Below are positions 8,482 to 61,592 of a stretch of 64,000 bases of DNA, in pieces. Within the stretch, counting starts at the first letter, position 1. The number at the start of each line of letters is the position of its first letter. A program made the translations under genes and the position numbers. This DNA is from an uncultured Rivularia sp. (GTDB lineage Bacteria; Cyanobacteriota; Cyanobacteriia; Cyanobacteriales; Nostocaceae). The notes under the pieces are model-generated. The model worked only from the letters and a program-made list of their open reading frames with translations. It did not search any database and was not told where the DNA came from. The stretch is from contig OY762007.1 of assembly GCA_963665115.1 (NCBI GenBank), positions 1,216,001 to 1,280,000 on the forward strand, written 5' to 3'.

Positions 8482-8501
8482 CTTGCCGATTAATCCCCGT
8501 A

Positions 8502-22639: not shown

Positions 22640-23001
22640 AAGCTCGATAGTGCTATGAAGGTTAGTTACTAAAAGATGTGAAAAAAGTTAAATTGCCGTT
22701 TGCGGCTCTAGAATACCTGAAAACTGGCTTATTTCGCTCGACATTAACTGTTAGCTATGAGCTGCAACTACTAGTACCGCTGCGCGGAAGTAAAAAGTCA
22801 AAAGTAAGAAGTAAAAAGTATTATATGATAAGGCTTTCAAACTTTTTAAATGGGTGCTTTATTTACGCCGTACTGTACTAGGTAGGTTTTTTTGTTAAAG
22901 AACCCCCTCATCGCTATCGCTGCTGTAAAAGCATATGCGATGAGGTGGTAACGGCGAGCTAACAAAGATGCAGTTCTCAGAGCTCTTAAGTCGATAAAAG
23001 T

Positions 23002-23062
23002 ACAATAAAAAATAAAAATGAAGAACTAATGAAGTATCTTCTTATCTTTACAAAACTTAATA
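23002..23062 (-). promoter_or_regulatory. Putative far-red-inducible promoter of the psbA3 operon
   Basis: Minus strand: TTTTGTAAA-N12-CTTCA-TTAGTT-CTTCA-N11-TATTGT. Same spacing as upstream of chlF. Confidence 0.7.
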
Positions 23063-23398
23063 ACTGTCTGAAGCACAGATGCGAGAATTTATTTATATTG
23101 AATTTAGAATAAATACTTACTAAATATAAATAAAAGTAAAGAAAATTATTTTTTATTGAAGCTAAGTAACTTTTAGGTAAGAAACTCGTTAATAATTATG
23201 TTGAATAAAAGTGTTTTTGCGGATATTTTTATTTCTAATCTATATAAAGAAATTAGATTTAGATATGGATGTTCGTGCTTGTCAACTGTTAGCATTTATA
23301 TAGAGCAAAAATAATAATTTGTGTGAAAAAAATAGTTCAATTTTTTAGTTAATTAATGTGAAAAAAACTTAGTTTCCAAGTTTAAGAGGTGATTTTAA

Positions 23399-24685
23399 AT
23401 GAGGATTTTAGTAGTTGAGGATGACAAGTGTATTACCAAAGCTTTGGAAAATATTCTTAGCAATCAACACTATGTCGTGGATATTGCCGAGAATGGTTTG
23501 CTTGGCTGGGAGTTTGTGGAGGCTTTCACCTATGACTTAATTTTGTTAGATGTAATTTTACCCGAACTTGATGGCATTGAATTTTGCCAGAAGTTACGAG
23601 AACATAACTATCAAATGCCCGTTTTATTATTAACAGCCCAAAACTCTAGCAATGATAAAGTGTTGGGATTAGATGCTGGAGCGGATGATTATGTTGTTAA
23701 ACCTTTTGAAGTCACTGAATTGTTAGCTCGAATTCGAGTTTTACTGCGTCGGAAAAATACACCAATACAAGCAGTTTTGCAATGGGAGAACCTGCGGCTG
23801 AATCCTGGTAGCACGGAAGTGACTTATAACAGTGATTTACTAAACCTGACTCCCAAGGAGTATCGTTTACTTGAACTTTTTCTTCGTAATAGCAATATTG
23901 TTTTTAGTAGAAGTGAGATTTTAGATCATTTGTGGTCTATGGAAGAAGCACCCAAAGAAGATACAGTTACAGCCCATATTAAAGGTTTACGGCACAAGCT
24001 GACGAGAGCGGGGGCACCGAGCGATTTAATTGAAACTGTTTATGGTTTGGGTTATCGTCTTAAAGAAATTGATCGCGCTAAAGTAAAATCCTCTGAGGAA
24101 AAACCTCGCAAGAAACTAAATAATAAACAAAGTAACAAACAGCAGCAGGCGAAGGAAGCATTGATTAAAACGTGGGAAAAGCTAAAAGCACTAAATATTG
24201 AACGCATCACTATTTTAGAGCAAGCTGTTAGCGCATTGTTAAAGAATAATAAAAGCGAAGAATTAATAGAAAAGGCGCAAAATGTAGCGCACCAATTTGC
24301 TGGAGGGTTAGGCATCTTTGGTTTTACTGAAGGTTCGCATCTAGCCAGAGAAATAGAGCAAATTTTTAAATCGAGAGTTAATTTAGACAGAACTCAAGGA
24401 CTTCATTTGAGAGAATTGGTAAAACTTTTACAGCGGGAAATACAACAGCCTGCGTTTAACAGCGATTGCAAACCCGTACAATGCGATAAATATTCTGTAA
24501 TGCTGGTAATTAATGATGATGTAAAACTAGCGAGGAACATAGTTAAATCTGCTATTGCATCGGGAATACATATAGAATCAGTACAAAATTTATTCGCAGC
24601 AAAAGAAGCATTAAACAAGCCTCAAGTTGATGCAGTATTGGTCAATCCTTCCCTTGATAAGACAACTGAAGAGGTTAAAGGTTAA
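23399..24685 (+). CDS. rfpB: FaRLiP DNA-binding response regulator (REC-winged helix-Hpt-partial REC)
   Basis: MRILVVEDD, LTPKEYRLLELF, IETVYGLGYRL, Hpt-like AHQFAGGLGIFG. First gene of rfpBAC. The C-terminal REC stops in a tandem repeat. Confidence 0.85.
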   Translation: MRILVVEDDKCITKALENILSNQHYVVDIAENGLLGWEFVEAFTYDLILLDVILPELDGIEFCQKLREHNYQMPVLLLTAQNSSNDKVLGLDAGADDYVVKPFEVTELLARIRVLLRRKNTPIQAVLQWENLRLNPGSTEVTYNSDLLNLTPKEYRLLELFLRNSNIVFSRSEILDHLWSMEEAPKEDTVTAHIKGLRHKLTRAGAPSDLIETVYGLGYRLKEIDRAKVKSSEEKPRKKLNNKQSNKQQQAKEALIKTWEKLKALNIERITILEQAVSALLKNNKSEELIEKAQNVAHQFAGGLGIFGFTEGSHLAREIEQIFKSRVNLDRTQGLHLRELVKLLQREIQQPAFNSDCKPVQCDKYSVMLVINDDVKLARNIVKSAIASGIHIESVQNLFAAKEALNKPQVDAVLVNPSLDKTTEEVKG

Positions 24686-24739
24686 AGGTCAAAGGTTAAA
24701 GGTCAAAGGTTAAAGGTCAAAGGTTAAAGGTCAAAGGTT
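24670..24739. repeat. Alternating heptamer tandem repeat (AAAGGTT/AAAGGTC) x ~10
   Basis: Seen directly; it supplies the rfpB stop codon. Confidence 0.9.
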
Positions 24740-24796
24740 AATAAGGCTTGTTTTTAATCTAAAACAAAAATATCCGTTGTTAAAACCCAAAATAGA

Positions 24797-27362
24797 ATGA
24801 CTCAGTTTAATAACCCACATCCGCAAATATCAAATAATTCCTCTATCAATGATGAAAAGCCAATTGCTTCTGTGGAGGTACTTTTACACCGGATGATGAA
24901 TCGGATTCGGCAATCCCTGGAATTACCTGCAATTCTCACCGGAAACTGTGGCAGAAGTCCGTACTTTCTTGGAGACAGACAGAGTTAAGGTTTATCGTTT
25001 TGATGCAGATGGCAGTGGAGAAGTGGTTGCTGAATCTGTTGTCAAAGAGCGCTTACCATCTCTTTTAGGACAACATTTTCCCGCAGAAGATATTCCACCC
25101 GAAGCACGCGAATTATTTATCAAAGCACGTCAGCGTTCAATTGTGAATTTAGCTACACAACAAATTGGCGTGAGTCCTTTGGATTGTCCGGAAACTGGAG
25201 AGTCTTTAGCACAAGATGATATTCGGTTTCGTCCTGTAGATGAATGTCATATCGAATATCTCACCTCAATGGGGGTACAGTCGTCATTAGTGGTGCCGAT
25301 TTTACATCACGACCAACTATGGGGATTATTGGTATCTCATCACAGTTTGCCACGTCAGGTAACAGAGCGAGAATTGCAGATTGTTCAGCTAGTTGCAGAC
25401 CAATTATCAATTGCGATCGCACAAAGTACTTTACTCGAACAAACCCGTGCCCGAGCAGCACAGGAAACTACAATTAATCGAGTCGCCAAGCTGTTGCATT
25501 CGATGACGGAGATGCAGTTACAGCAAGCATTGGAATTAACTGTATCTGGATTGCAAGGGGCGGGTGGTAGAGTTTACATTTTTCCGCAAAATCTCCAAGA
25601 GGAAGCACAATTGTTTGTTTCTGGAGAGTGGGTTAATAAAGATGAAGAAAAATTTGAGGAACATCCGACTTGGCAAGAGTGGTTGGGAAAGCAAGCAACT
25701 GTTGGGAATGGAATTAAAGCTTGGATAATTCCAGATTTGCATCAAGTTGCGCTGCCAGAATATTTAGAATCGGTTTTTTCAAACAGTAATATTCGCAGCT
25801 TGCTAGTTATCGAACTAAAATCTCGTCAGCAGAGCTTAGGTTATTTGAGTATATTTCGTCATGAAATTGAAATTGAAACTTTGTGGGCAAGAAGAGCCGA
25901 TCGCAATGATTCGCGACAACAGCGTCCAATAATATCTTTTGAAACATGGCGAGAATTAAAGCAAGGTCAAGTACAATCATGGATTGAGGCAGAAATTGAA
26001 CTTGCTTTGGCTTTAGGAAGTCACTTTGCCACAGCAATTCATCAATATGAACTGTATCAGCAAGTATACGCTCTCAATATTGACTTAGAACAAGATATCG
26101 AAGAGCGTAAGCAAGCAGAATTCAAAATATCTGCCTTAAATGCCCAATTAGAACAGCGAGTGCAGGAACGAACAGTAGAATTACGACGAGAAATTAACGA
26201 ACGCGAGCAAGCAAAAGCCTCACTCGAACGCCTTAGTCGGCAAAGCGGGTTAATCTTGAACTCCGCAGGAGAGGGAATTTGTGGTTTAAATGCTCAAGGT
26301 AAACTCACTTTTATCAACCCAGCAGCAGCGAGAATGTTGGGATATCGAGTAGAAGAATTGATTGTTTCAATCGCTAATAAGGATTCAGATTCGTACCCAA
26401 AATACATTCTCTCTGAATTTCCGCATCAGTCTGGAGAAAGATTTATGCACGTTATATTAAACCACTCCCAACCAGACGGAAGTCCTTACCCTTGGGAAGA
26501 AAATCCTATTTATGCCACCTTAAAAACTGGAGCAGTGCAACATATTACTGACGATATATTTTACCGTCGAAATAAAACAAAATTTCCTGTAGAGTATGTT
26601 AGTACACCAATTTTAGAAAAGAGTAAGATTGTAGGTGCTGTTGTCATTTTCAAGGATATTACCGAACGACAAATAATAGAGCGAATGAAAAATGAGTTTG
26701 TCTCAGTTGTCAGTCACGAACTGCGGACACCTTTAACTTCAATTCGCAGTGCTTTAGGTTTACTTTCAAAGGGTTCGTTGAATAATCAACCCGCTAAAAG
26801 TCAGCGGATGATGGAAATTGCCTTTGATAATACCAACCGCTTGGTGCGTTTAATTAATGACATTCTTGATATTGAACGCATCAATTCCGGCAAAGTGACG
26901 ATGGAAAAACAACATTGCAATGCTGGACAATTGACGATCCAAGCAGTAGATGAAATGCGAGCAATGGCTGAGAAAGCAGAAATTAAACTTGCTTTGAAAC
27001 CTGTTGAAATCCAATTATGGGCAGATCCAGATAGAATCGTTCAAACATTAACCAATTTACTCAGTAATGCAATTAAATTTTCGCCAGCAAATAGTACAGT
27101 TTCCCTTAGTGGAAAGCTGCAAGATTCTCAAATATTATTTCAAGTAAAAGATCGAGGTAGAGGAATTCCTGAAGATAAACTAGAAACCATTTTTGACCGC
27201 TTTCAACAAGTTGATGCTTCTAATTCTCGAAATCAAGGAGGTACGGGTTTAGGGTTAGCAATTTGTCGCAGCATTGTACAACAGCATGGTGGTAATATTT
27301 GGGTTGAAAGTACTTTGGATCGTGGTAGTACTTTTTACTTTACGTTACCTATTAGTAATTAG
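24797..27362 (+). CDS. rfpA: Knotless phytochrome histidine kinase (GAF-PHY-PAS-HK); apparent frameshift at ~24940
   Basis: FPAEDIPPEAR, RPVDECHIEYLTSMGV (bilin Cys), RPIISFETW, SHELRTPL, GGTGLGL. Removing one base joins 24797..24988 to 24948..27362. Confidence 0.92.
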
Positions 27363-27857: not shown

Positions 27858-28901
27858 TTACAAGACAAACTCTTCCGTAACCACAGCATCTTGATAAATG
27901 GCTTCCACTTTAAACTGTTTACCAGCAGCTTCGCTAAATGCTAACTGAATAATTTGGTCGGATTCTCTAGCAATCGCCGATTCACTTTCTGGTTCATCAG
28001 TATTATAATTCAGCGTTACTTTCAGTTGCAAACCTTGTGGTAAACAATATTCATTTTGAGAACGAATTTGTGCAAGTACACCTATCTCTTGATTTTCTTC
28101 AAGTCTCATATTAATTGTTAATGCAAAGCGCTGATTATTTAGTAATAATCCAAAGTCAAATAATTTACCCCTTCTAACTGCAAAATCAGATGACTGAGTA
28201 TTTCTTCTGGTTGCACTTGCATAACTAAGATTAGGCATTTGTGGTGTTAAAATATTTTCAATAGATTGCCAACTTTCTTCAAATAATCCACTCCACCATT
28301 GAGAAAGATTAACAAGGGATTGAGTAACTTTGTGAGGAATATTTTCTGCTGATTTAGGTAAAGGAATAGCTTCTATTTCCAGAAAGCGAATATATAAGAA
28401 TAAATTGTTCACTTCACTATCAAAGCTAGAAAGCGGAATTTTACAAATCTCAGAGTTTTGACTTGGAGATAATTCATCATGTCGTATTATTCCATGAATT
28501 GTTAACTGTTCGGCTTCTTCTAAAATTTCAACTAATACATAGAAGTGAGCAGCAAGTTGTGGTGATATGATATTTTCTTGATGAATAGAAACTAAATTGT
28601 CATAAAGACTATCTACAGTAATTAGTTGAACCTTAAATTCACCAACTTGTAAATTAACGTTCTTCTGTTGAGAATCTGCATCGAGTTGCTTAACTTCGAT
28701 ATCTGGGATTTGTTCTTGTAACCATTCTTCAAAACCGAATAAAGCTAGTTGATTTAAATAAACTCTCCATTGATTTTTCTCACCATCAATATTTTGACTA
28801 ATATTGATAGCTTTCTCATAATGTTCTGGTTCTAAACAAGCAATCCTTGGTTTAATTCGTTGGCTAAAATCTTGTTCTGCTTGTAAGGATAATCTAGTCA
28901 T
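27858..28901 (-). CDS. DUF1822-family protein
   Basis: WRVYLNQLALFGFEEWL, AAHFYVLVEILEE, VNLSQWWSGLFEESWQ, LPQGLQL, EEFVL. Confidence 0.8.
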   Translation of the reverse strand: MTRLSLQAEQDFSQRIKPRIACLEPEHYEKAINISQNIDGEKNQWRVYLNQLALFGFEEWLQEQIPDIEVKQLDADSQQKNVNLQVGEFKVQLITVDSLYDNLVSIHQENIISPQLAAHFYVLVEILEEAEQLTIHGIIRHDELSPSQNSEICKIPLSSFDSEVNNLFLYIRFLEIEAIPLPKSAENIPHKVTQSLVNLSQWWSGLFEESWQSIENILTPQMPNLSYASATRRNTQSSDFAVRRGKLFDFGLLLNNQRFALTINMRLEENQEIGVLAQIRSQNEYCLPQGLQLKVTLNYNTDEPESESAIARESDQIIQLAFSEAAGKQFKVEAIYQDAVVTEEFVL

Positions 28902-28924
28902 GGTGTTTTTATATATGATTATTT

Positions 28925-30496
28925 TTATGCTGCGTTTCTTTTCTGATTGATATACTCTCGCAATCTTTGAGCAAATAAGCTATTTTTATAAAGGCTCCTT
29001 GATGCTGTAATTTCTGCATAAGCTTCTTTAAATGCTATTTCATACAAAAAATTTCTTACCTGTTGTGCTATATCTCGTAAATTATTCGGGTTGCAAGATA
29101 CTTCCTCCGTAAAAAATTTGCTAGCTTTTTCTTGAATTTGTTCTATGAAACTCTTCTCGGAAAAAGACTGAACATTTTCAATTAGTTCGCTCAATTGAAA
29201 TATACGTCTGGCTTTTGCCCAATTTGTTTTCCATAATTGTGCAATTTCTTTCAAACTCAAAGGATTATTTGTTTGGTAATAGAGTTGTAATCCTTGGATA
29301 AATTTTGGAGCATAGGCAGAATAATTCTTTTTTTTAGATAAAAATACCACTCGTTGAGGAATGATTGATGAAATTGCGTTAAATAATATTTTATTTGGTA
29401 ATTTATTCAAAAGTTCTCGTAATTCAATCTCTTCTATATATTCGCAGTTAAGATTTTTAATATAAGACGCATTCGGATTAAAATCAGAATTATTATTATC
29501 TTTATCTATAGAACCAGCTTTAGGACTTCCTATCCTGGTAGAATACTCATCTTGACGTAATATTTCTGCAATTTTTTGAAAACTTTGAATCAACTCATGA
29601 ACAGAACTAAGTATAATGTCTTTATCCTGTAATAAATCAAGCATTTCTTCTAACTGTGGGTGTGTTGGTTCGGAACACCTACCCCTTTGATGAAATTTTC
29701 GTCTATCTCTTCTATAAACTGCATGAAAAACTTTTATTAATTGATGTTCCTTATTAGTGAAATGAGTATCGAGCGATTGAGGGACTTCTCTACATAATAA
29801 AGACCAATCGCTAGAAATCCAAATTCCAAGCTCTAATAAAAATATTTGTAAGTTCTTATTTTGTCTAATACATCTGATACACCAATTATCTAAACTTTCA
29901 CTATTCTTGTTACTAGATAAATTTGGATTGTAAGTTCTTAAAATATCGACACTAAAAAAATTTCCTTCTCTAGGTATTGATTGAGTAGAACCATTTTTAT
30001 TAAAAATTAGTTGAGTTTTATCATCGCAGTCCATAACAATGAAGGTACTACCGTCATCGTTGAGAACGTATGATAACAAGTCTGGTAATAATGTATAATT
30101 ATTGGGACTTTTGTTCGCGAGTATTTGACAACCTTTAATAATAGCGTGAGATAAATAGCATCTTAAACAAAGCCCTGCCTCAGCACGTTTTTTACCATCA
30201 AGATTAACATCATGGAATATTTTCCACAGATGTACTTGAACATATTGATTTTCTGCCTTAGATAAATTTGTTTGACTACTTAATTGTGGTAATTCATCTC
30301 TAAAAAACTCTTTTGCTAAAGTTGATTGTTTCTCTCTATAACAAGAAGTCAGTTTACCATCTTTATCAAAAGGATTAGCGATAATGCACATTGTCCAATA
30401 TCTTGATGTATTTGTATCCATATTTTTGTTGTTCATCGGAATTAGTTCATAAGTTCTCATATTGAGATTTGCGATAAAAACGGGATTGGTAAACAA
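28925..30496 (-). CDS. Large sigma-70-like / HTH protein paired with DUF1822
   Basis: AGLCLRCYLS, SDWSLL, FHAVYRRDR, C-terminal HTH LSLKEIAQLW...ARRI. Paralog at 59703..61175. True start may be an internal ATG. Confidence 0.6.
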   Translation of the reverse strand: MFTNPVFIANLNMRTYELIPMNNKNMDTNTSRYWTMCIIANPFDKDGKLTSCYREKQSTLAKEFFRDELPQLSSQTNLSKAENQYVQVHLWKIFHDVNLDGKKRAEAGLCLRCYLSHAIIKGCQILANKSPNNYTLLPDLLSYVLNDDGSTFIVMDCDDKTQLIFNKNGSTQSIPREGNFFSVDILRTYNPNLSSNKNSESLDNWCIRCIRQNKNLQIFLLELGIWISSDWSLLCREVPQSLDTHFTNKEHQLIKVFHAVYRRDRRKFHQRGRCSEPTHPQLEEMLDLLQDKDIILSSVHELIQSFQKIAEILRQDEYSTRIGSPKAGSIDKDNNNSDFNPNASYIKNLNCEYIEEIELRELLNKLPNKILFNAISSIIPQRVVFLSKKKNYSAYAPKFIQGLQLYYQTNNPLSLKEIAQLWKTNWAKARRIFQLSELIENVQSFSEKSFIEQIQEKASKFFTEEVSCNPNNLRDIAQQVRNFLYEIAFKEAYAEITASRSLYKNSLFAQRLREYINQKRNAA

Positions 30497-30733
30497 AATC
30501 TGTCATGCTTTGTCCAGTCGAGCTTACATCTATATATAGATTGGGGATTTTTTACCTATACATTTTTCTTGGAATCTCCTTGTCATCTATCTAATGGTTG
30601 ATTATTTAACAAAAACTTTCACATAACATTAGGTAACATTTTTTACACAAAAAGTAATATTTTTATGGCACATCAAATAACATCATATAGTCAATAAGGA
30701 TACACAGGATATTACAACCATAAGGAACTGATA

Positions 30734-33700
30734 ATGCAGGTACTGGTGAATCTAAGGTTTCATGATGGTGATTTTCAGCATGGATTTGAGAAAACTACCC
30801 TTAGTGGGATTGTAACTGGTAGTCAAAATTCTACAGAACTAGAAACTCGACTACCCCCTGCACCTTTAATCCCTGGTTTGTATCAAAGTTGGCAGGAGAA
30901 ATACTGTGAGTTAGTGGAAACTCGCGTCAGAAAAATTGTACCCAAAGAACTGATAACCACAAGAGGTTTTAGTAAACAACAATCTACTAATTTCTCTTAT
31001 TACGAGTGTCAGCAGAATTGCAATCAATATGCTGAAGATTTGCGTACTCAAATTAATCAATGGCTGGCTGCAATTAAGTCACAATTAGAAACTGATTTTA
31101 AGTTAGATACAAATTCAGAAATTTTATTAACTATCAATACTGAAAATATTACATCCCAATTTACAAAGGATATTTTACATCGTTTACCTTGGCGGGAATG
31201 GGATTATTTTAATCGTTGTTCTGGTTTTGAAATCGCTTTGTGCTTGAGCAAATTTCAGTCAAATTCCACCAAAATTGTTGACGATGGGATATTTAGAAGA
31301 GTTAGGATTACTAGTATATTTGGTGATAGCACAGATATCGATATTGCTGGCGATCGCCAATTAATCGCAAAACTCCAAAAGCGGGGAGCAGAATTAATAA
31401 ATCTTGAGCAACCACAACGTCAAGATTTTATTAAATTATGGGATGAACCTTGCGATATTTTATTTTATAGCGGTCATAGTGAAAGTAGTATTGATGGTAC
31501 TCTTGGTTCGCTACAAATTAGTAGTACGGAAAGTTTAAGTTTACAGGAAATTAGAAATACTTTTCAAGAAGCTATTAGAAAAGGTTTAAAGTTAGCGATA
31601 TTTAATTCCTGCGATGGTTTGGGTTTAGCTAAGCAATTAGCAGATTTACATTTGCCTTATATTATAGTTTGGCGCGAACCCGTACCAGATAAAATAGCTC
31701 AAAAGTTTCTGGAGTATTTTCTCAGTTCTTATGCTGAAGGTAAATCTTTATTTAACTCGGTGCGAGATGCCAGAATTAAGCTGGTTGAATTAACAAATAG
31801 TGCTGAAAAAGAAAATCTTATTCCGGGATTGGAATGGTTGCCGATTATCTGTAAAAATACAACTGATGCTCCTCCGACTTGGGAAGATTTGGGAGGACTT
31901 ACGGGTAAACTTCCTGACTGCCCTTATCAGGGTTTATCCGCATTTAGGGAAGAAGATAAGGAATTCTTTTTTGGTCGGGATGATGTAATTGCAGACTTAG
32001 TAGAAGTTGTTAATAGTAAATCTTTTATTCCCGTTATTGGTGCTTCTGGTAGTGGGAAATCTTCTGTGGTATTCGCGGGATTGGTTCCGCAATTGAGGAA
32101 TGTTGGTAACGTACAGATTGTATCCTTTCGTCCGGGAAAGAATCCTTTTGATGCTTTGACTGTAGCATTAAGTCGAATTCAAAATGTTGAACTAAACAAT
32201 AACCGATTGCAAGAATTGGAATTAGAAATCAACTTGGAACATGATGAGAAAGCATTATGCGAGTTGATTGAACACTTGAATGACCTAACCCCCCAGCCCC
32301 CTTCCCTGCGAGGGAAGGGGGAGAAATTAAAGCCCCTCTCCTCACAGGAGAGAGGTTTGGAGAGAGGTTTCCCCCCAACGCTTCGTACTAATAGCCGACC
32401 AATTTGAAGAACTTTACACCTTAACTGAAGATTCCCTGCGTCAATCTTTCCTTGATTTATTACTTTATACAGTACAGAATACTCCCCTCTTTAGTTTGGT
32501 ATTGACGCTCAGGGCTGATTTTATGGGGAAAGTGCTGGATTATCAACCGATGGGTGAAGCTTTTCAAAAGTATCCCCCGGTGTTGCTGACTCCCATGAAA
32601 CCCGAAGAATTACAAGCAGCGATCGCACAACCAGCAGCGAAATTGAAGGTGGAGTTAGAGCAGGGGTTGACAAGTAAGTTAATTGATGATTTAGGCAATC
32701 AACCCGGACGTTTACCTTTATTAGAGTTTACCTTGTCGCTGCTGTGGGAGAAACACGATAAATGGTATCTTACACACAAGGCTTATGCAGAAATTGGTGG
32801 TTTAGAAAAGGCTTTAGCGAAATATGCGGATGGTGTTTTGAATCCGTTATCCGCTGTTGATAAAGAAAAAGCCGAACGCATATTTATTCAGCTAATTCGT
32901 CCGGGGGAAGGTACGGAAGATACTAAGCGTAAAGCTACCTGTGGAGAAGTTGGGGAAGATAATTGGGATTTGGTGGAGTTTTTAGCGAATAAGCGTTTGG
33001 TGGTGACTGGTTGGGATGAAAGCAGTCAACAGCAAACGGTAGAGATTGTTCACGAAGCTTTGATTCGGGAATGGGGAATGTTGCGGGAGTGGATACACAG
33101 CAATCGTAGGTTCCGGATTTGGCAGGAGCGATTACAATTTGAATTAGTGAAATGGGAAGACAAGAAGCGCGATCGCGATTATTTATTAAACGGTGGTGGT
33201 TTAGGTGAAGCGGAAGCTTGGTTAAATGATCGTAAATATCGGAAGTATTTGAGTGATTCGCAACGGGAGTTTATTCGGGAGAGTTTGGAGAAGCAGGATA
33301 AGGAAGAAAAGGAAAAAGTAAGGTTACAAAGACGTGCGATTAAATGGCTTTCTGGTGGTTTGGTTGCAGCTTCCTTGGCTACTGGGTTTGCTGGTTGGAA
33401 TTGGGTGAAAGCAGAGGTAAGCGCGACAACAAGCAAAATTAATAGTTTCAAAGTGAATTCAGAATATCTTTTTGGTTCGCAGCAGTATGAAAGTGCATTA
33501 ATAGAAGGTATAAAAGGGAATGAATTATTAGAAAATACCTGGTTGCAAAGATGGATACCAAATGATTCAAAAAGGGAAGTTAAATTAGCTCTGTATAATG
33601 CTATTCATAATTCTATATTAGAAAAAAGCACTATTACTACTGGAAAGAAACCCGTTATAAGCTTGGAATATAGTCCGAATGGTAATATTATTGCTTTCAC

Positions 33701-36700
33701 GTCAGAGAATACAATCAAATTATGGTCTGCTGAAAATGGTCAATTACTTCATACTTTATCTGGACATAAAGATAGGGTTTTAACTGTAAAATTTAGCCCA
33801 GATGGAAAAACTATTGCTACCGCATCATTTGATGGAACAGCTAAATTATGGTCTGCTGAAAATGGTCAATTACTTCATACTTTATCTGGACATAAAGATA
33901 AGGTTTTAAATGTAAAATTTAGCCCAGATGGAAAAACTATTGCTACCGCATCAGAGGATAATACAGTCAAAGTGTGGTCATTTGATGGTAAGTTAGTAGA
34001 TACTTTATCTGAACATAAAGATGGAGTTTTAAATGTAGAATTTAGCCCAGATGGTACAACTATTGCTACCGCATCATTTGATGGAACAGCTAAATTATGG
34101 TCTGCTGAAAATGGTCAATTACTTCATACTTTATCTGGACATAAAGATAAGGTTTTAAATATAGAATTTAGCCCAGATGGTACAACTATTGCTACCGCAT
34201 CAGAGGATAATACAGTCAAAGTGTGGTCAATTAATCGTAGATTACTCTACACTCTATCAGGGAATAACGTGAAGTTTAGCCCGGATAGTAAAATTATTGC
34301 TACTGCTTCAAGAGATGATGGAACAGCCAAATTATGGTCAATTAATGATGGTAAATTACTCCACACTTTATCTGGACGTAGCGTAGAATTTAATCCGGTT
34401 GGTAAAACTATTGCTACCAGATCATTTGATAATACAGTGAAATTGTGGTCATTTGATGGCAAGTTACTGCATACTTGGTCTGGATATAACGTCAAATTTA
34501 GCCCAAATGGTAAAACTATTGCTACTGCTTCACTAGATGATGGAACAGCCAAATTATGGTCAATTAATGATGGTAAATTACTCCACACTTTATCAGGAGA
34601 TAGGGTTAAATTCAGCCCAAATGGTAAAACTATTGCTACCGTATCATTTGATAATACAGTATTGTGGCTAAGAAAATTATCGTCAATAAAATTATGGTCA
34701 ATCGATGGTAGATTACTCCACACTTTACCAGGAAATAGCGTAGAATTTAGCCCCGATAGTAAAACTATTGCCACAATTTCAAGGGATAATAGAATTAATA
34801 AAACTACAGTGAAATTGTGGTCAATCGATGGTAAATTACTCCACACTTTACCAGGAAATAACCATACTTTACCAGGAAATAATGTTACATTTAGCCCCGA
34901 TAGTAAAACTATTGCCACAATTTCAAGCGATTATGGAATCAATAACCATACAGTGAAATTATGGTCAATCAATGGTAGATTACTTCACACCTTATCAGGA
35001 AATAATGTTAATTTTAGCCCTGATAGTAAAACTATTGCTTCTTCAAAAGATGGAAAAGTAGAATTTTGGTCAATTGATGGTCAATTTCTCTACACTTTAT
35101 CAGGATATAATGTTAAATTTAGCCCGGATAGTAAAACTATTGCTACCACATCATCTAGTAAAATAAATTTGTGGTCAATTGATGGTAAATTTCTCCATAC
35201 TCTATTAGGGAATTCATCAAGAAATGATGTTAAATTTAGCCCGGATAGTAAAACTATTGCTACCATTTCAAGGAATAACGATATATTCAGTAATACAGTG
35301 AAATTATGGTCTATTAATGGTAGATTTCTCTACAAGTTATCCGCAAATAGCGTGGAATTTAGCCCAGACAGTAAAACTATTGCTACTTCATCATTTAGTA
35401 AAATAAAATTGTGGTCAATCGATGGTAGATTACTCAACACTTTATCAGGAAATGGCGGAGAATTTAGCCCTGATAGTAAAACTATTGCTACAATTTCAAG
35501 CGATAATAGAATTAATAAAACTACAGTTAAATTGTGGTCAATTGATGGTAAATTCCTCCAAGATTTATCAGGGAATACCGTAGAATTTAGCCCGGATGGT
35601 AAAACTATTGCTTCCGTTTCAGACAATCATATAGTAAAATTATGGAATTGGAATTTTGATAATTTACTAAGTCAAGGTTGTAAGAAACTTGAAGGTTACT
35701 TAATTAACCGTCCAGATAAACTTAAAGAACTTAAAGTTTGTCAAAACCCAGAAATATTAATCGCAGCTGCTTCTACTTTAGTAAGACAAGGTGAGGATTT
35801 AGCTAAAAATGGTGATTCTGCAAGAGTTGTGGCGATGTTTCGTCAAGCTCAAGAATGGAATCCTAAATTAAATATTAACCCAGAGATAAAAGCAAAGGCA
35901 CGATATTTGGTTACTTTAGGTAGAGATTTGGCGAGAAATGGCGATTTTGAAGATGCAATAGAAAAGTTGGAAAAAGCAAAGCAGCTTGATGTTAATATTG
36001 ACCTTGATCCACAAACTGAAGAATTAGATAATAACCCCTCGTCAGTAGCAGGAGAGCTTACAGCCCGATATTTAGTTAGTCAAAGTAGATTTGCGAGAAA
36101 TGGCAATTTTGAAGATATGCTAAAAAAGTTAGAAAAAGCAAAGCAGCTTGATGCAAATATTGACCTTAATCCATTCACTAAAAAATTAGATAACAACCCT
36201 TCTTCAGTAGTAAGAGAGCTTAGAGCAGCATTTATGGTTCGCGAAGGATTAGATTTAATACAAAAAGGTGATTTTAAAGCTGCTATCGCAAAGTTAGAAA
36301 AAGCACAACAGCTTGATGCAAATATCGACTTTAATCCACAAACTAGAGAATTAGATAATAGTCCCCCTGAAGCATTAGTAAAAGAGTTTAAAGCAGCATC
36401 TATTGTTCGCGAAGGAGGAGCATTAATACAAAAGGATAATTTAAAAGGTGCTATAGAAAAGTTTAAAGAAGCACAACAATTTTATCCAGATATTGACCTC
36501 AATCCATTAACTAAAAAATTAGATAACAATCCGAAACTAGCAGCTAGAGAACTTACAGCAATATTTCTTGTCCGCAAAGGAGAACAATTAGTTAGAAAAG
36601 GTGATTTAGAAGGTGCTGTAGAAAAATTTAAAAAAGCACAGCAATTCGATGTAAATATTGATCTAAATCCACGAACTAAAGAATTGGATACTAATCCTGA

Positions 36701-36803
36701 TACAACAGTTCTAGAATTTTTTAAAAATGGACAAAGATTAACGCCACCAATCTCAAACGACTCGTTAATTCCACCACCGCCACCATTGCTACCATCTTTT
36801 TAA
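30734..36803 (+). CDS. CHAT - STAND (nSTAND1-type) NTPase - TM - WD40 - TPR-like protein; apparent frameshift at ~32373
   Basis: FYSGHS and FNSCDGLG (CHAT dyad); CPYQGLSAF; Walker A GASGSGKSS. Walker B VLIADQFEELY is restored by removing one C. LPLLEF, many WD40 repeats and five ~60-aa C-terminal repeats follow. Confidence 0.85.
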
Positions 36804-37201
36804 TAAGGGTTTGAACGCCAAAACCATAAAAAAGCTAAAGATGTTAGTAAAAAAGGTTTATTTTGCTTATACAGCATATGTTACAAGTTTTAGGCGATGA
36901 CTTTTAGCATAGTAAGTACTGAAGAGCCACTAATTTAGTTAATAGCGCTGTAATGCTTCTATATGGTGTTTAAAGCGTTTTCTCTATCGTGAAAGGATTT
37001 TAATTGATAAGCAACTATGATTTATCTCCAATAAGTCATTACCCACACCACAAGTTCATAAAATTGTATAGGTAAATTTATCCAAAACTATTAACTATCA
37101 GAAGCATTACAACTGGTGCTTTATTGATGGAATGAAGACTTAATTATTATGACTTTGTTCCCGTAGTTAAAGTAAAAAATATACTAAATTACTAGCAGTT
37201 T

Positions 37202-38341
37202 ATGAGTTCTTTTAAACAAGAAGATGAATATCAACTAGGAGGAAGTCTACCCGAAGAAGCTCCTAGTTACGTAGTAAGAAAAGCCGATTTTGACTTTTAT
37301 CAAGGTTTAAAAGAGCGAATGCTTTGCTACGTATTGAATTCCCGACAAATGGGAAAATCTAGTTTACAGGTGCGAACAATGTCAAAGCTTGAAAGAGAAG
37401 GTTTTGCTTGCGTTGCATTTGATATGACGGAGCTTTGCGTTAATCAAGTCACTGAAGATGAATTCTATAGTGGATTTGTTAGTCATTTAGCGAGCGAATT
37501 AAATTTAGATATTGATTTACAAAACTGGTGGTACGAACACAGCTTTATTCAACCATCTTTACGGTTAAGTAAATTTGTTGAAGAAGTGCTATTACAACTT
37601 CCACAAGATATTGTCATATTTATAGATGAAATTGATATCCTTCTAAATTTCAACTTTAAAAATGATTTTATGGCTTTTATTCGCTCTTGCTATCACAAAA
37701 GGATTGAAAAACGCTCCCTAAATCGTCTTACTTTCGCTCTATTGGGAACTGCAACTCTAGAAGAGTTATTTCAAGATAAAAATTATATAAATGATACATA
37801 TTTTCAGATCCAACATCGAGCGATAGAATTAACGGGTTTTCAGCTTCATGAAGTAGAGCCATTACAAAAATCATTAACTACAGTAGCCGATAATCCATCA
37901 CTGGTAATGCAAGAAATCCTTTTATGGACGGGAGGACAGGCGTTTTTAACTCAATGGGTTTGTCAGCTAATTTCTACTTCCGGGTTGCGGATATTTGAAG
38001 GGGAAGAAGCGAAAAGTGTTTCTTGGATTGTGCGATCGCGCATTATCGAAAATTGGTTATTACAGGATAATCAACAACATTTTTATACTATTAAAGACCG
38101 CATTATCAACAATAAAATACCTGCTTATAAATTATTGCAGCTGTATCAAAAAATTTTGCACTATGGAAATATTTCTGCTGATGATAGTCCTGAAGTTTTG
38201 CAATTATACTTGTCGGGTTTGGTGAAAGAGCATGATGGTAAGTTAGAAATTTATAACCGCATTTATAAATCGGTTTTTGATGATACTTGGGTAGCGAAAG
38301 AGCTACAGGTTTTATATCAGAGTGTAGAAAGTTTTTTTTGA
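37202..38341 (+). CDS. AAA-like (AAA_35) domain protein, stand-alone
   Basis: YQLGGSL...YVVRKAD, NSRQMGKSSL, IFIDEID, WTGGQAFLTQ, NRIYKSVFD. Confidence 0.8.
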   Translation: MSSFKQEDEYQLGGSLPEEAPSYVVRKADFDFYQGLKERMLCYVLNSRQMGKSSLQVRTMSKLEREGFACVAFDMTELCVNQVTEDEFYSGFVSHLASELNLDIDLQNWWYEHSFIQPSLRLSKFVEEVLLQLPQDIVIFIDEIDILLNFNFKNDFMAFIRSCYHKRIEKRSLNRLTFALLGTATLEELFQDKNYINDTYFQIQHRAIELTGFQLHEVEPLQKSLTTVADNPSLVMQEILLWTGGQAFLTQWVCQLISTSGLRIFEGEEAKSVSWIVRSRIIENWLLQDNQQHFYTIKDRIINNKIPAYKLLQLYQKILHYGNISADDSPEVLQLYLSGLVKEHDGKLEIYNRIYKSVFDDTWVAKELQVLYQSVESFF

Positions 38342-40259: not shown

Positions 40260-41616
40260 TTGCTAAGATCCATGAAATCCGAATCAGAATTAACCTGGAA
40301 GCAAACACAAAATCTAGTAGATGATTTAGTTTTCCAAGTCACCAAAAAACACCTTGGTGCTTCAGAAGTACAGGTACTGCATGGAGCCTGGTATGGGAAA
40401 ACTTATGAAACTATTGCATCCGAATCTTTTCTCGCGGTTAAGTATATTGGTGAAGTTGGTGGCAGATTATGGAGTAACCTTTCTGAAGCATTAGGAGAAG
40501 AAGTTAAAAAAACTAATTTTCGTCAAGCACTACAGCGACAATGGGAAAAACAAGCGGAGCATAACGGGAATACACCCAAAATCTCAGAAATACAACCATT
40601 AATAAACGAATTTACTGAAGAAACCATTAATTGAACGTCCGAACATTGAATCTTACTGTTATGAGCAAATATCCAAACCGGGTGTATTGCTGCGAATTCA
40701 TGCACCATTGCAGTTTGGAAAAACAGAACTAATGTCACGAGTAGTGAAACATAGCGTAAAACTTCAATACCGCACGGTAGTTTTAAATCTGCGAGATGCA
40801 GTAACTGAAGATTTTCAGAGTTTGGATAACTTTTTGCAGTGGTTGATTATTAGTATTAGCGAAATCTTAGAGATAGAGCAATCTGTGGAAGAACATTGGG
40901 CTAAAAGCTTGGGTAACTGTAAGATAAAAAGCCGAACTTACTTTGAAAAGTATATTTTACCTGGTGATAGTCCTATTACTATTACTTTAGATGAAGTAGA
41001 TAAATTATTTCCACATGAAGAAATAGCAGGAGATTTTTTAGGAACGCTACGAACTTGGCATGAATACGCAAAAACTAAACCTCTTTGGCAGCAATTACGA
41101 TTATTAATATTACATAGACAAGTTTATAATCAAATAAATATTAATCAATCACCCTTTAATACCGGAACCGAAATTAAATTAATAGATTTTACTAGCGAAC
41201 AAGTGGAATCTTTAGCAAAGAAATATAAATTAAACTGGGGAAACACTCAAGTTGAACAGCTAATGGCAATGGTGGGAGGACATCCATATTTAATAAAAAA
41301 AGCCATAGAGGTAATATCGCGCCAGGATATAACTTTAGAAAACTTATTGAAGTCTGCACCTACAGCTTCTGGGTTTTATCGGACTCATTTAGAAAGACAT
41401 TTACGTTACTTACAATCAAATACTGCACTCTTAGATATTTTTAAAGAAATTGTATTGTCAGATAGTCCCATTCAAATCAATACAGATATCTCATTAGATG
41501 ATGCAGTCAAATTATATGATTGTGGATTAGTAGAGCTTTCAAATAATAGTGTAGCGCCACGCTATCAAATTTATAGTTTATATTTTCAAGAAAGGTTAGC
41601 GAGTTGCCATTCTTGA
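40260..41616 (+). CDS. N-terminal HTH + AAA_35 protein; apparent frameshift at ~40622
   Basis: VLHGAWYGKTYETIA...LWSNLSEALGEEVKKTNFR HTH. Removing one A gives EPLIERPNIESYCYEQISKPGVLLRIHAPLQFGKT; also LDEVD and GGHPYL. Confidence 0.8.
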
Positions 41617-42064: not shown

Positions 42065-42451
42065 GTGAACCACCGACGTATTTTACTTATTATTGAGAAT
42101 GAAGATGCTCTACAGGAAGTGACTCAGCTTTGCTTAGAGACAACAGCAGGTTGGGAAGTTGTAACAACAGGGTCGGTAAATGAAGCTATTGTCAAAGCTA
42201 CAACTAAACGGGTTGATGCAATTCTTCTCAATTTGAATGAAATTACATTTGATTTTGACTGGAATAGTATATTGCAATTGCACAATAACCCGACAACTCA
42301 GCAAATCCCGATAATTTTATTAACTTCTACAGAGCAGTATAAACAATTGCCTCAATTAAGTAAAGTTGGAGTAACCGCAGCGATTATCAAGCCTTTTGAT
42401 TTGTCAACTATTACTAGAGAAATCGCGGCTGTATTAGGCTGGGAATATTAA
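42065..42451 (+). CDS. RfpC-like pseudo-receiver protein
   Basis: CheY fold similar to rfpC (TQLCLE..GWEV, NPTTQQIPIILLT, KPFD) but ENE replaces DDD and DAILLN replaces DAILLD. Confidence 0.8.
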   Translation: MNHRRILLIIENEDALQEVTQLCLETTAGWEVVTTGSVNEAIVKATTKRVDAILLNLNEITFDFDWNSILQLHNNPTTQQIPIILLTSTEQYKQLPQLSKVGVTAAIIKPFDLSTITREIAAVLGWEY

Positions 42452-42452
42452 A

Positions 42453-42515
42453 ATTGTAAGCTTTTGTAAATATAACCTTCCTCTTCATAAGTTCTTCAGA
42501 ACTTTTTTTTATTCT
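42453..42515 (+). promoter_or_regulatory. Putative chlF far-red promoter with an upstream HLR1-like site
   Basis: TTTTGTAAA-N12-CTTCA-TAAGTT-CTTCA-N11-TATTCT. Reverse strand 42453-42470 reads TTTACAAA-AG-CTTACAAT. Confidence 0.7.
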
Positions 42516-43832: not shown

Positions 43833-43887
43833 TTGGTAGTTGGGCATTGGGGATGGGTAATTGGGCATCGGGAATTAGGAATATTAT

Positions 43888-56926: not shown

Positions 56927-57421
56927 AATGAGTGTTTATATCTAACGCTTAAAGTTTGACTACGAATATATAGGAGCCAGTTCGATCTAATTATGCAGTT
57001 TGGATCGAAATGCTAATAATTAACTTTCTAACAATCGGTATATCACGAACTGTACTTATTAATTGCGATTAGGAACTTGATTACAAATCTTAATGAATAA
57101 ATGTTAATAAAACAGATAATTTTTGGATAATCTGCATAAATTAGCAAAAGCTTCCCCTATAGGATAAATAGAATAAACTCGCACCTTTTAACGGGAGGTA
57201 GAAGTCAAAAAAATTTATGCATTATCAATTAAAAATTCAAAATTACCATTACCTAAAGTTTGAGGCTTGAAGCAAGGAATATGCTTTTATCTTTTTCTCC
57301 TCAATTAAACAATTAAAAAATAATTATTTTTTAATTTTTAATGCGGGCATTTTTAATTTTGAATTAAAAAAATGGTCAAATGCACCATATTATGTACTGA
57401 AGAATAAAAATTAACTTCCGA

Positions 57422-58454: not shown

Positions 58455-59514
58455 TTACAATTCAAAATTTTCCTTAATAATCACATTTCCCAAACTAATT
58501 TGTATACTAAATTTTTTCCCTGGTTTCCCCTTGAAAGGTTTCAATTGAATGTAATTATCTTGAATTCTAGACGTAACTTCTTGGAGGGTTTTACCAGCTT
58601 TAGAAATTAACAGCAACTTGATATTCTGCGGTAAATATTTTTCGCTATTCATGGGATATAGCTGAGCTAAAACGTTAATTTTATCTTCACTAATTTCATC
58701 TTGACTGTCAGCAGATTTATCAGGAGATATATTAACTAGCAGCGCAACTTTTCTATTACCCAAATCTATGCCTAAATCAATAATTTTCGCTTTTTTAGTA
58801 GCTTTATCAAGATTTCTGGTACTAAAAGCTAAATTTAATTCTGGATTGGAAATGGAATCTATTGTTTGCCAAGCTTCATCAATTACTCCTTGCAACCATT
58901 GACTTAACTTAGTGGTAGTTGTGTTTACAAGTTTGGATAAACTTTGATTCGCAACGGGTAGAGCAAATTCGGATGCTTGCAAGTAACGCTGATACACTAA
59001 TAAATGGCTTGGTTCCATATCAAATAGAGACAGGGGTAGTTGATAACAACCTTCATCTACAGATAATTTCAAACTACTTTTAATCTCTATCAATTGATTG
59101 TAAGGTAAAAAGCCTCTAATTATAACTTCTTCCTCTTCTTCCAATACCTCTAAAAGCACATAATAATGGGCTGTTAATTCCGGCTTTTCGATTACCGCTT
59201 GTGGTATTTTGACAACTTCATCTAACAAATGCTCGGTGGCGATCGCACAAAATTTGAAGTCATCAATTTTGAGATTTCCAACAGTTTCAATAAAGCTGGT
59301 ATCTCTGGATACTACTTTATTTGGTAAGCGCTCGCATAACCATTCCTCAAATGCAAGTAGTGCTAATGCATTAAGATAGGCTTGCCAAGAATCGTTAGGA
59401 TTAGTGGTATCTAAAGAACTGATTTTTTGTGCTAACAAGAAATGTTCGGGTTTCTAACCAGACGGTTTCTCGTAGCAAAAGCCTTAACTCTTGAGAATAA
59501 GTTGAATTTGGCAT
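58455..59514 (-). CDS. DUF1822-family protein; apparent frameshift at ~59452
   Basis: MPNSTYSQELRLLLRETVWLE then PEHFLLAQ; WQAYLNALALLAFEEWL, AHYYVLLEVLEE, LSQWLQG, ENFEL. Confidence 0.82.
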
Positions 59515-59702
59515 GATCTTACCTAGTGTATAAAGGTAAATAGTTGTGAGCCGGAAAAGCTTATGCAGTTTATTATATGACTCTATGGACTTATGGTAAG
59601 ATTTTTAATTAAGGATATAAGCCTCATACTTTAGGCTAAGTTAATTTTGAATTTTGAATTTTGAATTTTGAATTGTTTTGACTATTGCTTACCTATCTGT
59701 TT

Positions 59703-61175
59703 CTAGCATAATTTAGCTTCTTGCCCCTGTAGAGATTGTTGAATATAACAACGAAGTTCCTTAGCATATGGACTATTCATCGTCCGATTTTTACCCGCTC
59801 TAATTTCTTCGGCAGCTTGTTGAAATATTTCTCCATCAACATAGGATTCAATTTGTTCGGTTAAAGTTAGAAGATAATTTGCTTCGGGTGGAATTTTAGT
59901 TAAACCTTTCTCTGCGGCTTTTTTCAAAATACTGTCCAACATCTGCTCAACCGTTTTAGTACGCACTTTTAATAAAAGTTCTCCGGGATTCAAAATTCGT
60001 CTTGCTTGATCCCAACTAGTCATTCCTAATTGAGGTGCAATCTCTTTTAAAGACATTGCTGATTCGTAATACAAATGCAATCCCTGAATGTATTTTTGAG
60101 CAAAAGACTGATACCTTTTACTTTTTTGTAATTTTTGAATATTAACTTCTACTTCTTGCTTAATTGTTTGGGACAAAGTTGCTTGAAGTGAGTCATGCAA
60201 AAACTTTAAAAAATCTTGCTGCTCTAAATCCGCTTCATTAAGTGATGAACTAGGTAAATCGCGTCTCGCTACATATGTACCGCTTTCACTATCGTATATA
60301 TCTAAAGATTCTCTAGAATTCCAAACATCGTACCTTCTTAACTGTAGAGCAATTTGTTTGAGTTCTTTAATTAACTGAACTTGAGTATTAATTTGAATTT
60401 GATGGTGCTGTAAATAAGATAGCATTTCTTCTAATTGAGCAGTAGTTGGATCGGGACATTTCTTGTTCCCTTTATTTTTTTGTTGCTGCCTGTCTCGACG
60501 ATAAACAGCGTGAAAAGCTTCGACAACGTAGTATTCTTGCGGTGATAAACGTTCAAGTTGTTTTTTTCTAGTTCTATTTAACAGTGCCCAGTCACTCGAA
60601 TGCTGAAAACCAAACTCCGATAAGAACTTTTTCAATTCGGGATTTTGTTTTGTTTGCAAATATGCCCAATTATCCAGACTCATCCGAGATTGTAATTCGG
60701 AGTTGAATGTTTGTAAAACCTTGACAGAAAAGAAGTTATACTCCGAAGCGCGAGTTTTAGAACTGTCATCTACCATTAGTTGAGTTTTCCCATCTCTGTC
60801 TAAAACAATTAATTTTTCTCCATCATCATTGAGAACAAACGGTAATAAATCCCGATAACTAAACTGTTTTTCACCACTAAATAAAGAATCCAATTTTTTG
60901 CATTCTCGCAAAATTGGCTCAGAAACATAGCATCTAAGACAAAGACCTGCCTTAGCGCAATTAATCGTATCTTCTCCACCATTTTCACCTTTAAAACGCG
61001 ATAATAGAATATTTTGTTCGTTACTATCTTCTACATCGAAGACTTGACTATTTGTAAATTCTTGAGCAACGGTAACATGAAATTGTTTATACCCGGATTT
61101 TTCCGCAGCAGGGTTAATCCGCCAAATTTTCCAATATCTTGAAGAAGTATTCATAGTCAATGTATCACTCGTCAA
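59703..61175 (-). CDS. Large sigma-70-like / HTH protein paired with DUF1822
   Basis: AGLCLRCYVS, SDWALLN, FHAVYRRDR, HTH MSLKEIAPQLG...ARRI. Paralog of 28925..30496. Confidence 0.6.
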   Translation of the reverse strand: MTSDTLTMNTSSRYWKIWRINPAAEKSGYKQFHVTVAQEFTNSQVFDVEDSNEQNILLSRFKGENGGEDTINCAKAGLCLRCYVSEPILRECKKLDSLFSGEKQFSYRDLLPFVLNDDGEKLIVLDRDGKTQLMVDDSSKTRASEYNFFSVKVLQTFNSELQSRMSLDNWAYLQTKQNPELKKFLSEFGFQHSSDWALLNRTRKKQLERLSPQEYYVVEAFHAVYRRDRQQQKNKGNKKCPDPTTAQLEEMLSYLQHHQIQINTQVQLIKELKQIALQLRRYDVWNSRESLDIYDSESGTYVARRDLPSSSLNEADLEQQDFLKFLHDSLQATLSQTIKQEVEVNIQKLQKSKRYQSFAQKYIQGLHLYYESAMSLKEIAPQLGMTSWDQARRILNPGELLLKVRTKTVEQMLDSILKKAAEKGLTKIPPEANYLLTLTEQIESYVDGEIFQQAAEEIRAGKNRTMNSPYAKELRCYIQQSLQGQEAKLC

Positions 61176-61592
61176 ACAAATATTTATACAACACTCTTAC
61201 CATGTATATGGATGTTAGTAGATAGGAATTATGCAGGATATACAGCAGATTTCATTTAAGTGAGGTACACATCGTTTCTAGAGGAAGTAGTGAGTAGGGA
61301 GTAGTGAGTAGGGAGTAGGGAAATGTACCTCATATACCTGCAAAGTGCTGTAGGTGTAGGTTGTTGAAATAATTTATTTAAGATACATGAGGCATTCCTT
61401 GAGTTAAGTCTTCAATAAGTTTAATTTTCATCGGTTTTTATGTTTCAATAAATCTCTATTTTAAAAGATGGGGCAATTTTTCGGCAAACCTACTAAGCTA
61501 CCCCACGCAGTTTGATATTTTTTATTTTGAATTCAAAAAATTGTCATAGATAATGAGCTTGATACAATAATGCAATAAATAATAGCTAATAA

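Follow-up and report, generated by a model that had tools for sequence, protein, structure and literature searches.

What reads a conserved two-part sequence motif that flanks a large signalling gene, and which genes does it serve? The question is raised by a stretch of 64,000 nucleotides from an uncultured Rivularia sp. (GenBank assembly GCA_963665115.1, contig OY762007.1, positions 1,216,001 to 1,280,000), referred to below as the window, where two copies of the motif TGTATAG-N16-CTAT lie on either side of a gene for a protein with caspase-like CHAT, STAND and WD40 domains. We consider it probable, with good confidence, that the two copies (A-type sites) are -35/-10 promoters read by the neighbouring ~500-residue divergent sigma70-type factor, here called A, which would transcribe from them its own gene, the DUF1822 gene behind it and a gene for an AAA_35 protein, and that a sister factor B, also encoded in the window, likely reads TGCATAA at many places in the genome. 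The features are collected in Table 1.

Table 1. Features of the window discussed in the text, with window coordinates (residue numbers for the modelled parts of protein A)
Feature	Position	Strand	Remarks
DUF1822 protein, candidate anti-sigma	27858..28901	(-)	23 bp downstream of sigma-like gene; Pfam PF08852, E 3e-46
Sigma-like protein A	28925..30496	(-)	Open reading frame (ORF) of 523 codons; likely start ATG 30460
Parts of protein A in AlphaFold model	~28-226; 228-325; 325-349; ~363-453		Sigma2-like; sigma3-like; flexible/disordered linker; sigma4-like; also C-terminal helices
A-type site 1, TGTATAG-N16-CTAT	30536..30562	(-)	Predicted -35/-10 self-promoter of sigma-like gene and DUF1822; predicted transcription start ~30527; matrix 40.4 bits
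CHAT-STAND-WD40 gene, divergent from sigma A	30734..36803	(+)	N-terminal domain, CHAT (caspase-like), nSTAND1, WD40
A-type site 2, TGTATAG-N16-CTAT	37065..37091	(+)	Predicted promoter of AAA_35 gene; predicted transcription start ~37100; matrix 40.1 bits
AAA_35 (STAND-type NTPase) gene	37202..38341	(+)	Pfam PF14516, E 6e-21; predicted target of site 2
B-type site TGCATAA-N17-CTAT, upstream of TPR-CHAT gene 53712-56507	56970..56997	(-)	B score 28.1, A score -4.7
B-type site TGCATAA-N17-CTAT, weaker match	57133..57160	(+)	B score 6.4
DUF1822 partner of paralog B	58455..59438	(-)	Domain scan
B-type site TGCATAA-N17-CTAT, between sigma B and its DUF1822	59540..59567	(-)	B score 27.7 bits, A score 0.1
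Sigma-like paralog B	59703..61175	(-)	Helix S-W-D-Q-A-R-R; residue after Trp is D389 (A427 in protein A)
TGCATAA-N17-CCAT variant, predicted sigma B self-promoter	61208..61235	(-)	B score 11.7

The initial annotation of this DNA had described a 12-base exact match followed by CTAT at equal distance, and both places are exactly as it gave them. Site 1, read from 30562 to 30536 on the minus strand, is TGTATAGGTAAA-AAATCCCCAAT-CTAT, and site 2, read from 37065 to 37091 on the plus strand, is TGTATAGGTAAA-TTTATCCAAAA-CTAT; the 11-base stretches between the 12-mer and CTAT are unlike each other. Both sites are intergenic, each faces a gene (the sigma-like ORF 28925-30496 and the AAA_35 ORF 37202-38341, respectively), and both are directed outward from the intervening CHAT-STAND-WD40 gene. 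The match within the window is not significant by itself, because shuffled sequence yields some 12+4 gapped pair about 0.5-1 times per 18 kb (30 shuffles); the pair is significant because the motif is kept in all eight loci of the subclade to which sigma A belongs and because it passes a genome-wide matrix test. The 12-mer TGTATAGGTAAA has four further copies in the genome, where CTAT is absent at that distance. Three copies of a repeat, ~300 bp apart (G000 C1:1186135, 1186429 and 1186732), contain the 12-mer with no CTAT box at 16. A promoter of the housekeeping sigma factor was rejected, as neither A-type site appears in a scan for TTGACA/TATAAT.

Conservation was assessed in a sample made up of the 80 highest-ranking of the 324 loci confirmed in public genomes and 40 further stretches from searched genomes. 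TGTATAG-N16-[CT]TAT occurs upstream of the sigma-like gene in 8/8 loci of sigma A's own subclade, together with 16 other intergenic sites, which precede AAA_35 genes, CHAT-STAND genes and genes of small proteins with signal-peptide-like N-termini; the orthologous AAA_35 gene is preceded by the same site in L002 and L003. A matrix trained on 26 distinct sites from 7 relatives, with the host genome excluded from training, was then applied to the 8.7-Mb host genome, where the two sites in the window scored 40.4 and 40.1 bits and the next best match 19.0, and no match reached 19 bits in any of three shuffled genomes. In five orthologous genomes, the A pattern gave 32 matches, 28 of them at most 15 kb from the gene, compared with 2 for a reversed control; the pattern was derived from the 10-kb flanks of those same loci, and the informative counts are therefore those of the matches elsewhere (4 in ~43 Mb) and of the near-gene matches that fall just outside the training flanks (5 of the 28). 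A strict form of the pattern was found 6 times among 151 genomes of the host's taxonomic family, in 5 genomes, 4 of which carry an A gene (control 0). From the conservation in the subclade, the matrix test and the search of five genomes we conclude that the A motif is real and confined to its own locus.

The sites have the arrangement of a bipartite directional promoter with a spacer of ~17 bp, as is characteristic of sigma70 promoters, the starts of the two boxes being 23-24 bases apart. They are oriented towards downstream genes: in intergenic regions between tandem genes, sense and antisense sites number 23 vs 2 in A loci, 28 vs 2 in B loci and 9 vs 2 in the host genome (self-promoters included), compared with an even background. 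Sites inside ORFs are rare (1/66 in A loci, 1/48 in B loci). Promoter-like copies stand in tandem arrays in L019 (5 copies, 72 bp apart, between -848 and -560 relative to the gene) and in L058 (6 copies, 97 bp apart, between -4350 and -3865), and in L022 and L030 the sequence TGTATGG...CTATACA, ~205 bp upstream of the gene, presents the motif on both strands as a possible bidirectional promoter.

The protein that would read these sites is likely a sigma70-type factor with a sigma3-like domain, as a combination of fold searches, profile alignments, a relative linked to DUF1822 and neighbours in the Atlas suggests, each line being moderate when taken separately. Its AlphaFold model (residues 1-512 of 523, 101 sequences, pLDDT, the predicted local distance difference test, 85.6) shows a folded helical, helix-turn-helix-like domain of ~100 residues at 228-325 and, near the C-terminus, a sigma4 helix-turn-helix, another trait of sigma70 proteins, with the recognition helix N425-W-A-K-A-R-R431. 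RNA polymerase or sigma entries account for 41/44 of the matches listed by Foldseek for this model. In a VIA structure search, sigma chains occupied 16/50 rows, with a best Z of 6.7; residues 83-224 aligned with domain 2 of SigA (4x8k; Z 6.6, 2.8 Å, 97 residues) and with other sigma2 structures at Z 5-6.3, all below Z 8, and residues 363-453 aligned with sigma-H (Z 5.3, 3.0 Å, 74 residues). Alignment by hhalign to the eight group 1/2 sigma factors of the host genome (65%, E 6e-5) spans sigma3, the sigma3.2 segment and sigma4. Protein A itself matches no Pfam family at E 0.01 and lacks a match to Sigma70_r2; in the wider family, Sigma70_r4 is the commonest weak Pfam match (8/40 members, best E 0.022) and is found on 12-87% of members in 7/10 Atlas clusters among those listed. 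Moreover, a distant relative linked to DUF1822 in the host genome passes the sigma factor model TIGR02937 (101 bits vs a cut-off of 42.9) and aligns with the family of sigma A and B by hhalign (84%, E 7e-6). The sigma-like identity that the initial annotation had assigned to both proteins is supported by these searches, at moderate scores, and the segments that it had reported as common to the two (CLRCY.S, SDW.LL, FHAVYRRDR and SLKEIA) are indeed present in both, which are 34% identical over 513 columns. Members of the family were found in 78/151 genomes of the host's taxonomic family and in 24/201 genomes sampled across the phylum.

How the paralogs would be kept apart can be approached by comparing sites with proteins. 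A FastTree tree of 122 proteins resolves clade A (support 1.0), clade B (0.98) and two distant clades, D and E; duplicates (L035, L038, L097, L098) and unplaced members (L090, L109, L120) were excluded from counts of sites and residues. Among sites other than the self-promoters, the third base of the upstream box is T (TGT) in 51/57 sites of A loci and C (TGC) in 47/52 sites of B loci, a contrast that corresponds to a single branch of the tree, such that the counts overstate independence. Position 427, directly after the Trp of the recognition helix, is Asp in 42/43 B proteins and in 0/54 A proteins. It is aligned by hhalign with the Glu of the 'RERxRQ' helix of sigma70, which we take to be a contact to a base of the -35 box. 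Within clade A, base 7 is A in 7/8 sites of the subgroup with Pro425 and G in 40/44 sites of the two other main subgroups. Clades D and E retain TGCAT and have changed downstream boxes, along with residues at the end of sigma2. We infer that residue 427 determines base 3, with C where it is Asp, as in B, and T where it is not, as in A. The diverged -35 specificity that the initial annotation had proposed thus stands as a difference of the upstream box between clades, the preference of the factors themselves being predicted from it, and the covariation of helix residues with the upstream motif, which it had suggested as a check, is seen as Asp427 tracking C at base 3 across clades A and B, with deviations in self-promoters, clade E and one further locus that are taken up below. 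It had also regarded a spacer shorter by 1 bp as part of the difference, but 19 non-self A sites have a spacer of 16 and 38 have one of 17, which rules out spacer length as a specificity rule or a trait of the class.

The upstream motifs of clades D and E were seen in two forms, TGCATAW-N14-GA[GA][TC]TAA-like, with the TGCATA box in 7/9 loci, and TGCAT[AG]A-N~14-AGAAAT-like, with the first box in 12/12; they occur at L101-L119, at L161:5967-6000 and upstream of G000 C1:1608898. A plasmid of Nostoc punctiforme also bears a member similar to clade D with the motif; on NC_010631.1 the motif lies upstream of NPUN_RS34160, at about record position 107928.

The B motif has a far wider reach. TGCATAA-N17-CTAT occurs 20 times in the host genome, 19 times in intergenic sequence, while other spacings occur 1-11 times each, and a matrix built from B loci of other genomes finds 19 sites of at least 19 bits, all of them intergenic, vs 1 per shuffled genome. 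The initial annotation had each factor insulated to its own locus; this holds for the A motif and fails for the B motif, given these strong sites across the genome. Nineteen genes behind B sites were scanned, and 14 have a Pfam match, including two two-partner secretion (TPS) proteins, CHAT-AAA_35, DUF928, iSTAND and a kinase; the transport and metabolic genes among them may be false targets. The host genome carries a second B-type paralog, 59% identical, which probably shares the motif, and a B site lies directly before DUF1822 for both B-type paralogs. In relatives, the B pattern reaches up to 38 matches. Across 54 genomes with a B gene there are 616 matches (median 9.5, at least 3 in 43/54), and across 96 genomes without it 25 matches (maximum 2; reversed control 10), counts that include kin and so are not independent, the same contrast being visible also inside several genera. 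For this comparison, presence of the B gene was assigned by a band of E values (11 such matches were placed on the tree, all as B), and one genome with a partial match was omitted.

DUF1822 lies directly downstream of the sigma-like gene in 77/84 loci, 3 of the 7 exceptions being at contig ends, and the best match of a DUF1822 protein sorts by the clade of its sigma factor. Four of the 12 DUF1822 genes of the host genome stand behind members of the sigma-like family; the other eight follow 5 genes that match TIGR02937 (E 1e-5 or better), 1 with a weak sigma match, 1 that encodes a protein with only a helix-turn-helix and 1 with no match. This gene layout is that expected of an anti-sigma feedback loop and makes DUF1822 a candidate anti-sigma factor. 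The DUF1822 model combines an N-terminal domain similar to restriction endonucleases (Z 8.5, 3.2 Å, 117 residues; also Z 8.1) with a C-terminal beta-sandwich; a Foldseek search with this model found nothing at E 0.001, and no clear (D/E)xK motif was recognized by eye in the DUF1822 consensus. A sigma70-like gene before another DUF1822 gene is broken into two ORFs (G000 C1:1170288-1171494).

In the mechanism that we propose, the sigma4 domain of factor A would read TGYATAR and the sigma2 domain would read the CTAT box. Somewhat less securely, the co-transcribed DUF1822 protein would keep the factor inactive and so close a negative feedback loop. Release of the factor through proteolysis by the adjacent CHAT-STAND protein is possible because this protein carries the His (residues 245-249) and Cys (291-295) motifs of CHAT, but this step is speculative and we regard it as rather doubtful. 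The most general picture would be an unrecognised group of ~500-residue cyanobacterial sigma70 factors whose paralogs are separated by a code, in which Asp in the helix reads C and other residues read T while other clades swap the -10 box, each factor being held by its own DUF1822 anti-sigma and freed by a caspase-like STAND sensor, with A serving a private island regulon and B acting genome-wide. We put this picture forward tentatively, as one that is more apt to fail in some part than to hold as a whole.

A number of observations weigh against these proposals, some against the identity of the protein, others against the motif as its target or against the code. The Foldseek search with the model of protein A returned no match at E 0.001 (best 0.035), the VIA search returned no Z as high as 8, and among NCBIfam models nothing matched protein A at E 1 or better, so that it does not pass the curated TIGR02937 test. 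A loose A pattern matched 59 of the 151 genomes, was swamped by background and did not separate genomes. Under the strict pattern, the self site is missing in 16/54 A loci and 20/43 B loci, and the B pattern is absent from 2 of the 54 genomes that have the B gene. Self-promoters of clade A are looser than non-self sites, with TGC in 10/44, and in the largest A subgroup 9/20 self-promoters have TGC despite a helix without Asp. L089 combines TGTATAG with a markedly different helix, TGC is read in clade E alongside Tyr427-Glu428, and the clade D paralog of the host genome has Phe at 427. The restriction of the A/B contrast to one branch of the tree belongs here as well.

The looseness of the self-promoters would be explained if the sites were promoters of this sigma family but both variants were recognized by A and B alike, or if B drove A in a cascade, with the base differences representing drift in each of the islands and not insulation. 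Only 2 of the first 7 bases distinguish the two motifs, which have CTAT in common, and most genomes with the A gene also carry the B gene (3/20 are A-only). We nevertheless consider cross-reading unlikely, as the third base in non-self sites follows the resident gene so closely, the three A-only genomes have one B-pattern match each, and TGTATAG sites are nearly absent outside the A locus. An imperfect inverted repeat formed by TGTATAG and CTATAYA (the reverse complement of TGTATAG being CTATACA) suggests another reading, where the motif is an operator of a dimeric DNA-binding protein, either the sigma-like protein in the role of a conventional regulator or the DUF1822 protein, whose N-terminal domain resembles restriction endonuclease folds and whose gene is associated with the motif no less closely than the sigma gene; the sites that can be read both ways in L022 and L030 would fit as well. 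The strong orientation of the sites towards downstream genes does not suit an operator, nor does the combination in clades D and E of the same upstream box with a non-palindromic downstream box, while the 16-17 spacer and the order of domains suit a sigma factor, and a catalytic (D/E)xK motif is not apparent in DUF1822. We judge an operator to be quite improbable.

That the two A-type sites are a chance match, or a functionless remnant of local duplication, draws on the rate at which gapped pairs of this size arise in shuffled sequence and on the four other copies of the 12-mer that lack CTAT. This explanation has already been largely refuted, and we give it hardly any weight: the spacers differ between the copies while the boxes are fixed, the motif is kept before non-homologous genes in orthologous loci, and it tracks the gene across the 151 genomes. 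The reading of the sites as promoters of factor A thus keeps its place as the preferred one.

Among established sigma factors, protein A shares with group 3 (FliA/sigma28, SigB/SigF type) the order sigma2-sigma3-sigma4 without region 1.1. Residues 79-220 of FliA give a weak profile match (E 0.24), and residues 84-445 of the model match SigB in the VIA search (Z 6.5), with the domains placed differently (root-mean-square deviation 16.9 Å over 156 residues). However, protein A is about twice as long, with a beta-hairpin insert in sigma2 and N- and C-terminal extensions, and none of the curated group 3 sigma models of NCBIfam matches it. Extracytoplasmic function (ECF, group 4) sigma factors consist of sigma2 and sigma4 only, joined by a short linker, and have ~200 residues. 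The predicted autoregulated promoter, co-transcribed partner, small local regulon and many paralogs with distinct promoters are reminiscent of ECF systems, but at ~500 residues and with a folded domain at 228-325, the end of which aligns to sigma3 and the sigma3.2 segment, protein A falls outside their definition, and DUF1822 is soluble and, by the searches made, unrelated to known anti-sigma factors.

The gene neighbourhood was already catalogued in 2021. Kaur et al. (2021, eLife, PMC8195603) describe EACC2-caspase neighbourhoods with an ECF sigma factor and DUF1822, and the loci studied here share two of their traits, namely a sigma-like gene followed by DUF1822 and, beside them, a gene in which a constant N-terminal domain and caspase or CHAT are followed by variable C-terminal domains. 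Their supplement lists the architecture EACC2+CASPASE+nSTAND1+beta-propeller, which corresponds to the CHAT, nSTAND1 and WD40 domains of 30734-36803. Unlike the ECF factors of that description, the factor here is ~500 residues long, includes a sigma3-like domain and is not recognized by the ECF-type profile. DUF1822 is described there as a tetratricopeptide repeat (TPR) protein, an assignment that we rejected in view of the nuclease-like domain and beta-sandwich of the model. In the accessible parts of PMC8195603 we found no promoter, regulon or paralog specificity, and a search of the available parts of its supplement for three accessions that belong to a related locus on a plasmid gave no match. 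A second parallel is the report by Hu et al. (2026, PNAS, PMC13342950), as far as accessible, that HetZ is a cyanobacterial sigma factor, enlarged by extra domains and long missed by annotation, which reads two boxes 16-17 bp apart (TCCGGA / TGnA) and is co-transcribed with a likely anti-sigma factor, PatU3. Our system resembles it in the enlarged and overlooked sigma factor, the two boxes and the co-transcribed candidate anti-sigma, and the E. coli reconstitution assay of that study is directly reusable, although the HetZ promoter is unlike the A and B motifs. Homology to HetZ and PatU was rejected: the models NF037963 and NF037965 match only three other host genes, and hhalign gives 0.4% to HetZ and 1.2% for DUF1822 to the gene after hetZ. 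In the accessible portion of PMC9679502, DUF1822 variants are only listed, and three motif strings are absent from the accessible supplement of PMC3610870. No description of the A or B motif or of a promoter code was found in the literature searched, most of it outside subscription journals, and within that scope the promoter code appears to be new.

The analysis provides a concrete promoter, a target list and a specificity rule for a family whose members carry the annotation hypothetical protein. The prediction of caspase/sigma/DUF1822 systems dates from 2021, and no test of them was found in the literature searched; through the predicted private promoter such a signalling system becomes directly testable, and a promoter-reporter construct is the missing readout by which its signal could be identified and the protease step tested. 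Natural paralogs whose promoters are almost the same yet distinct are also a model for divergence of sigma specificity and might supply orthogonal switches for engineering of cyanobacteria.

The CHAT-STAND gene between the two A-type sites is itself not preceded by an A-type site in the host genome, as determined by the matrix scan, which does not bear out, for this gene, the CHAT/STAND/AAA locus to which the initial annotation had each factor insulated; three more distant orthologous loci do have an A site before this gene. The encoded protein has an unassigned region of ~200 residues ahead of CHAT. A one-base frameshift near 32368 breaks the gene into two ORFs, 30734-32407 and 32496-36803; in 4 orthologous loci the gene is a single ORF encoding 1311-1792 residues. 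As near-identical DNA runs are one base shorter at this position in two of three cases (X2 and X3, not X1), the frameshift is either a variant of the strain or a slip in the assembly. A multicopy repeat within the gene, at 32283-32370, contains the frameshift.

The sigma A island lies between a phytochrome kinase gene and a lone receiver gene, inside a cluster of photosystem II, phycobiliprotein and photosystem I genes (12098-27362 and 42065-49653) that also includes the phytochrome kinase (24948-27362) and response regulators (23399-24685 and 42065-42451). This cluster is presumably one for acclimation to far-red light. Insertion of the island into the cluster is suggested because orthologous islands are flanked by other genes. 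Several genes of the window appear to be split or shortened by frameshifts or assembly errors, namely a phycobilisome linker (17142-19476), a response regulator (23399-24685), an ORF before AAA_35 (40260-41616), the start of which forms one ORF in L003, and a psaA-like gene (43826-45928). A third sigma/DUF1822 locus is located just left of the window, with a group of TPR, CHAT, DUF928 and CHASE2 genes at 2777-9230, and a DDE transposase encoded by two ORFs is found at 10545-11599.

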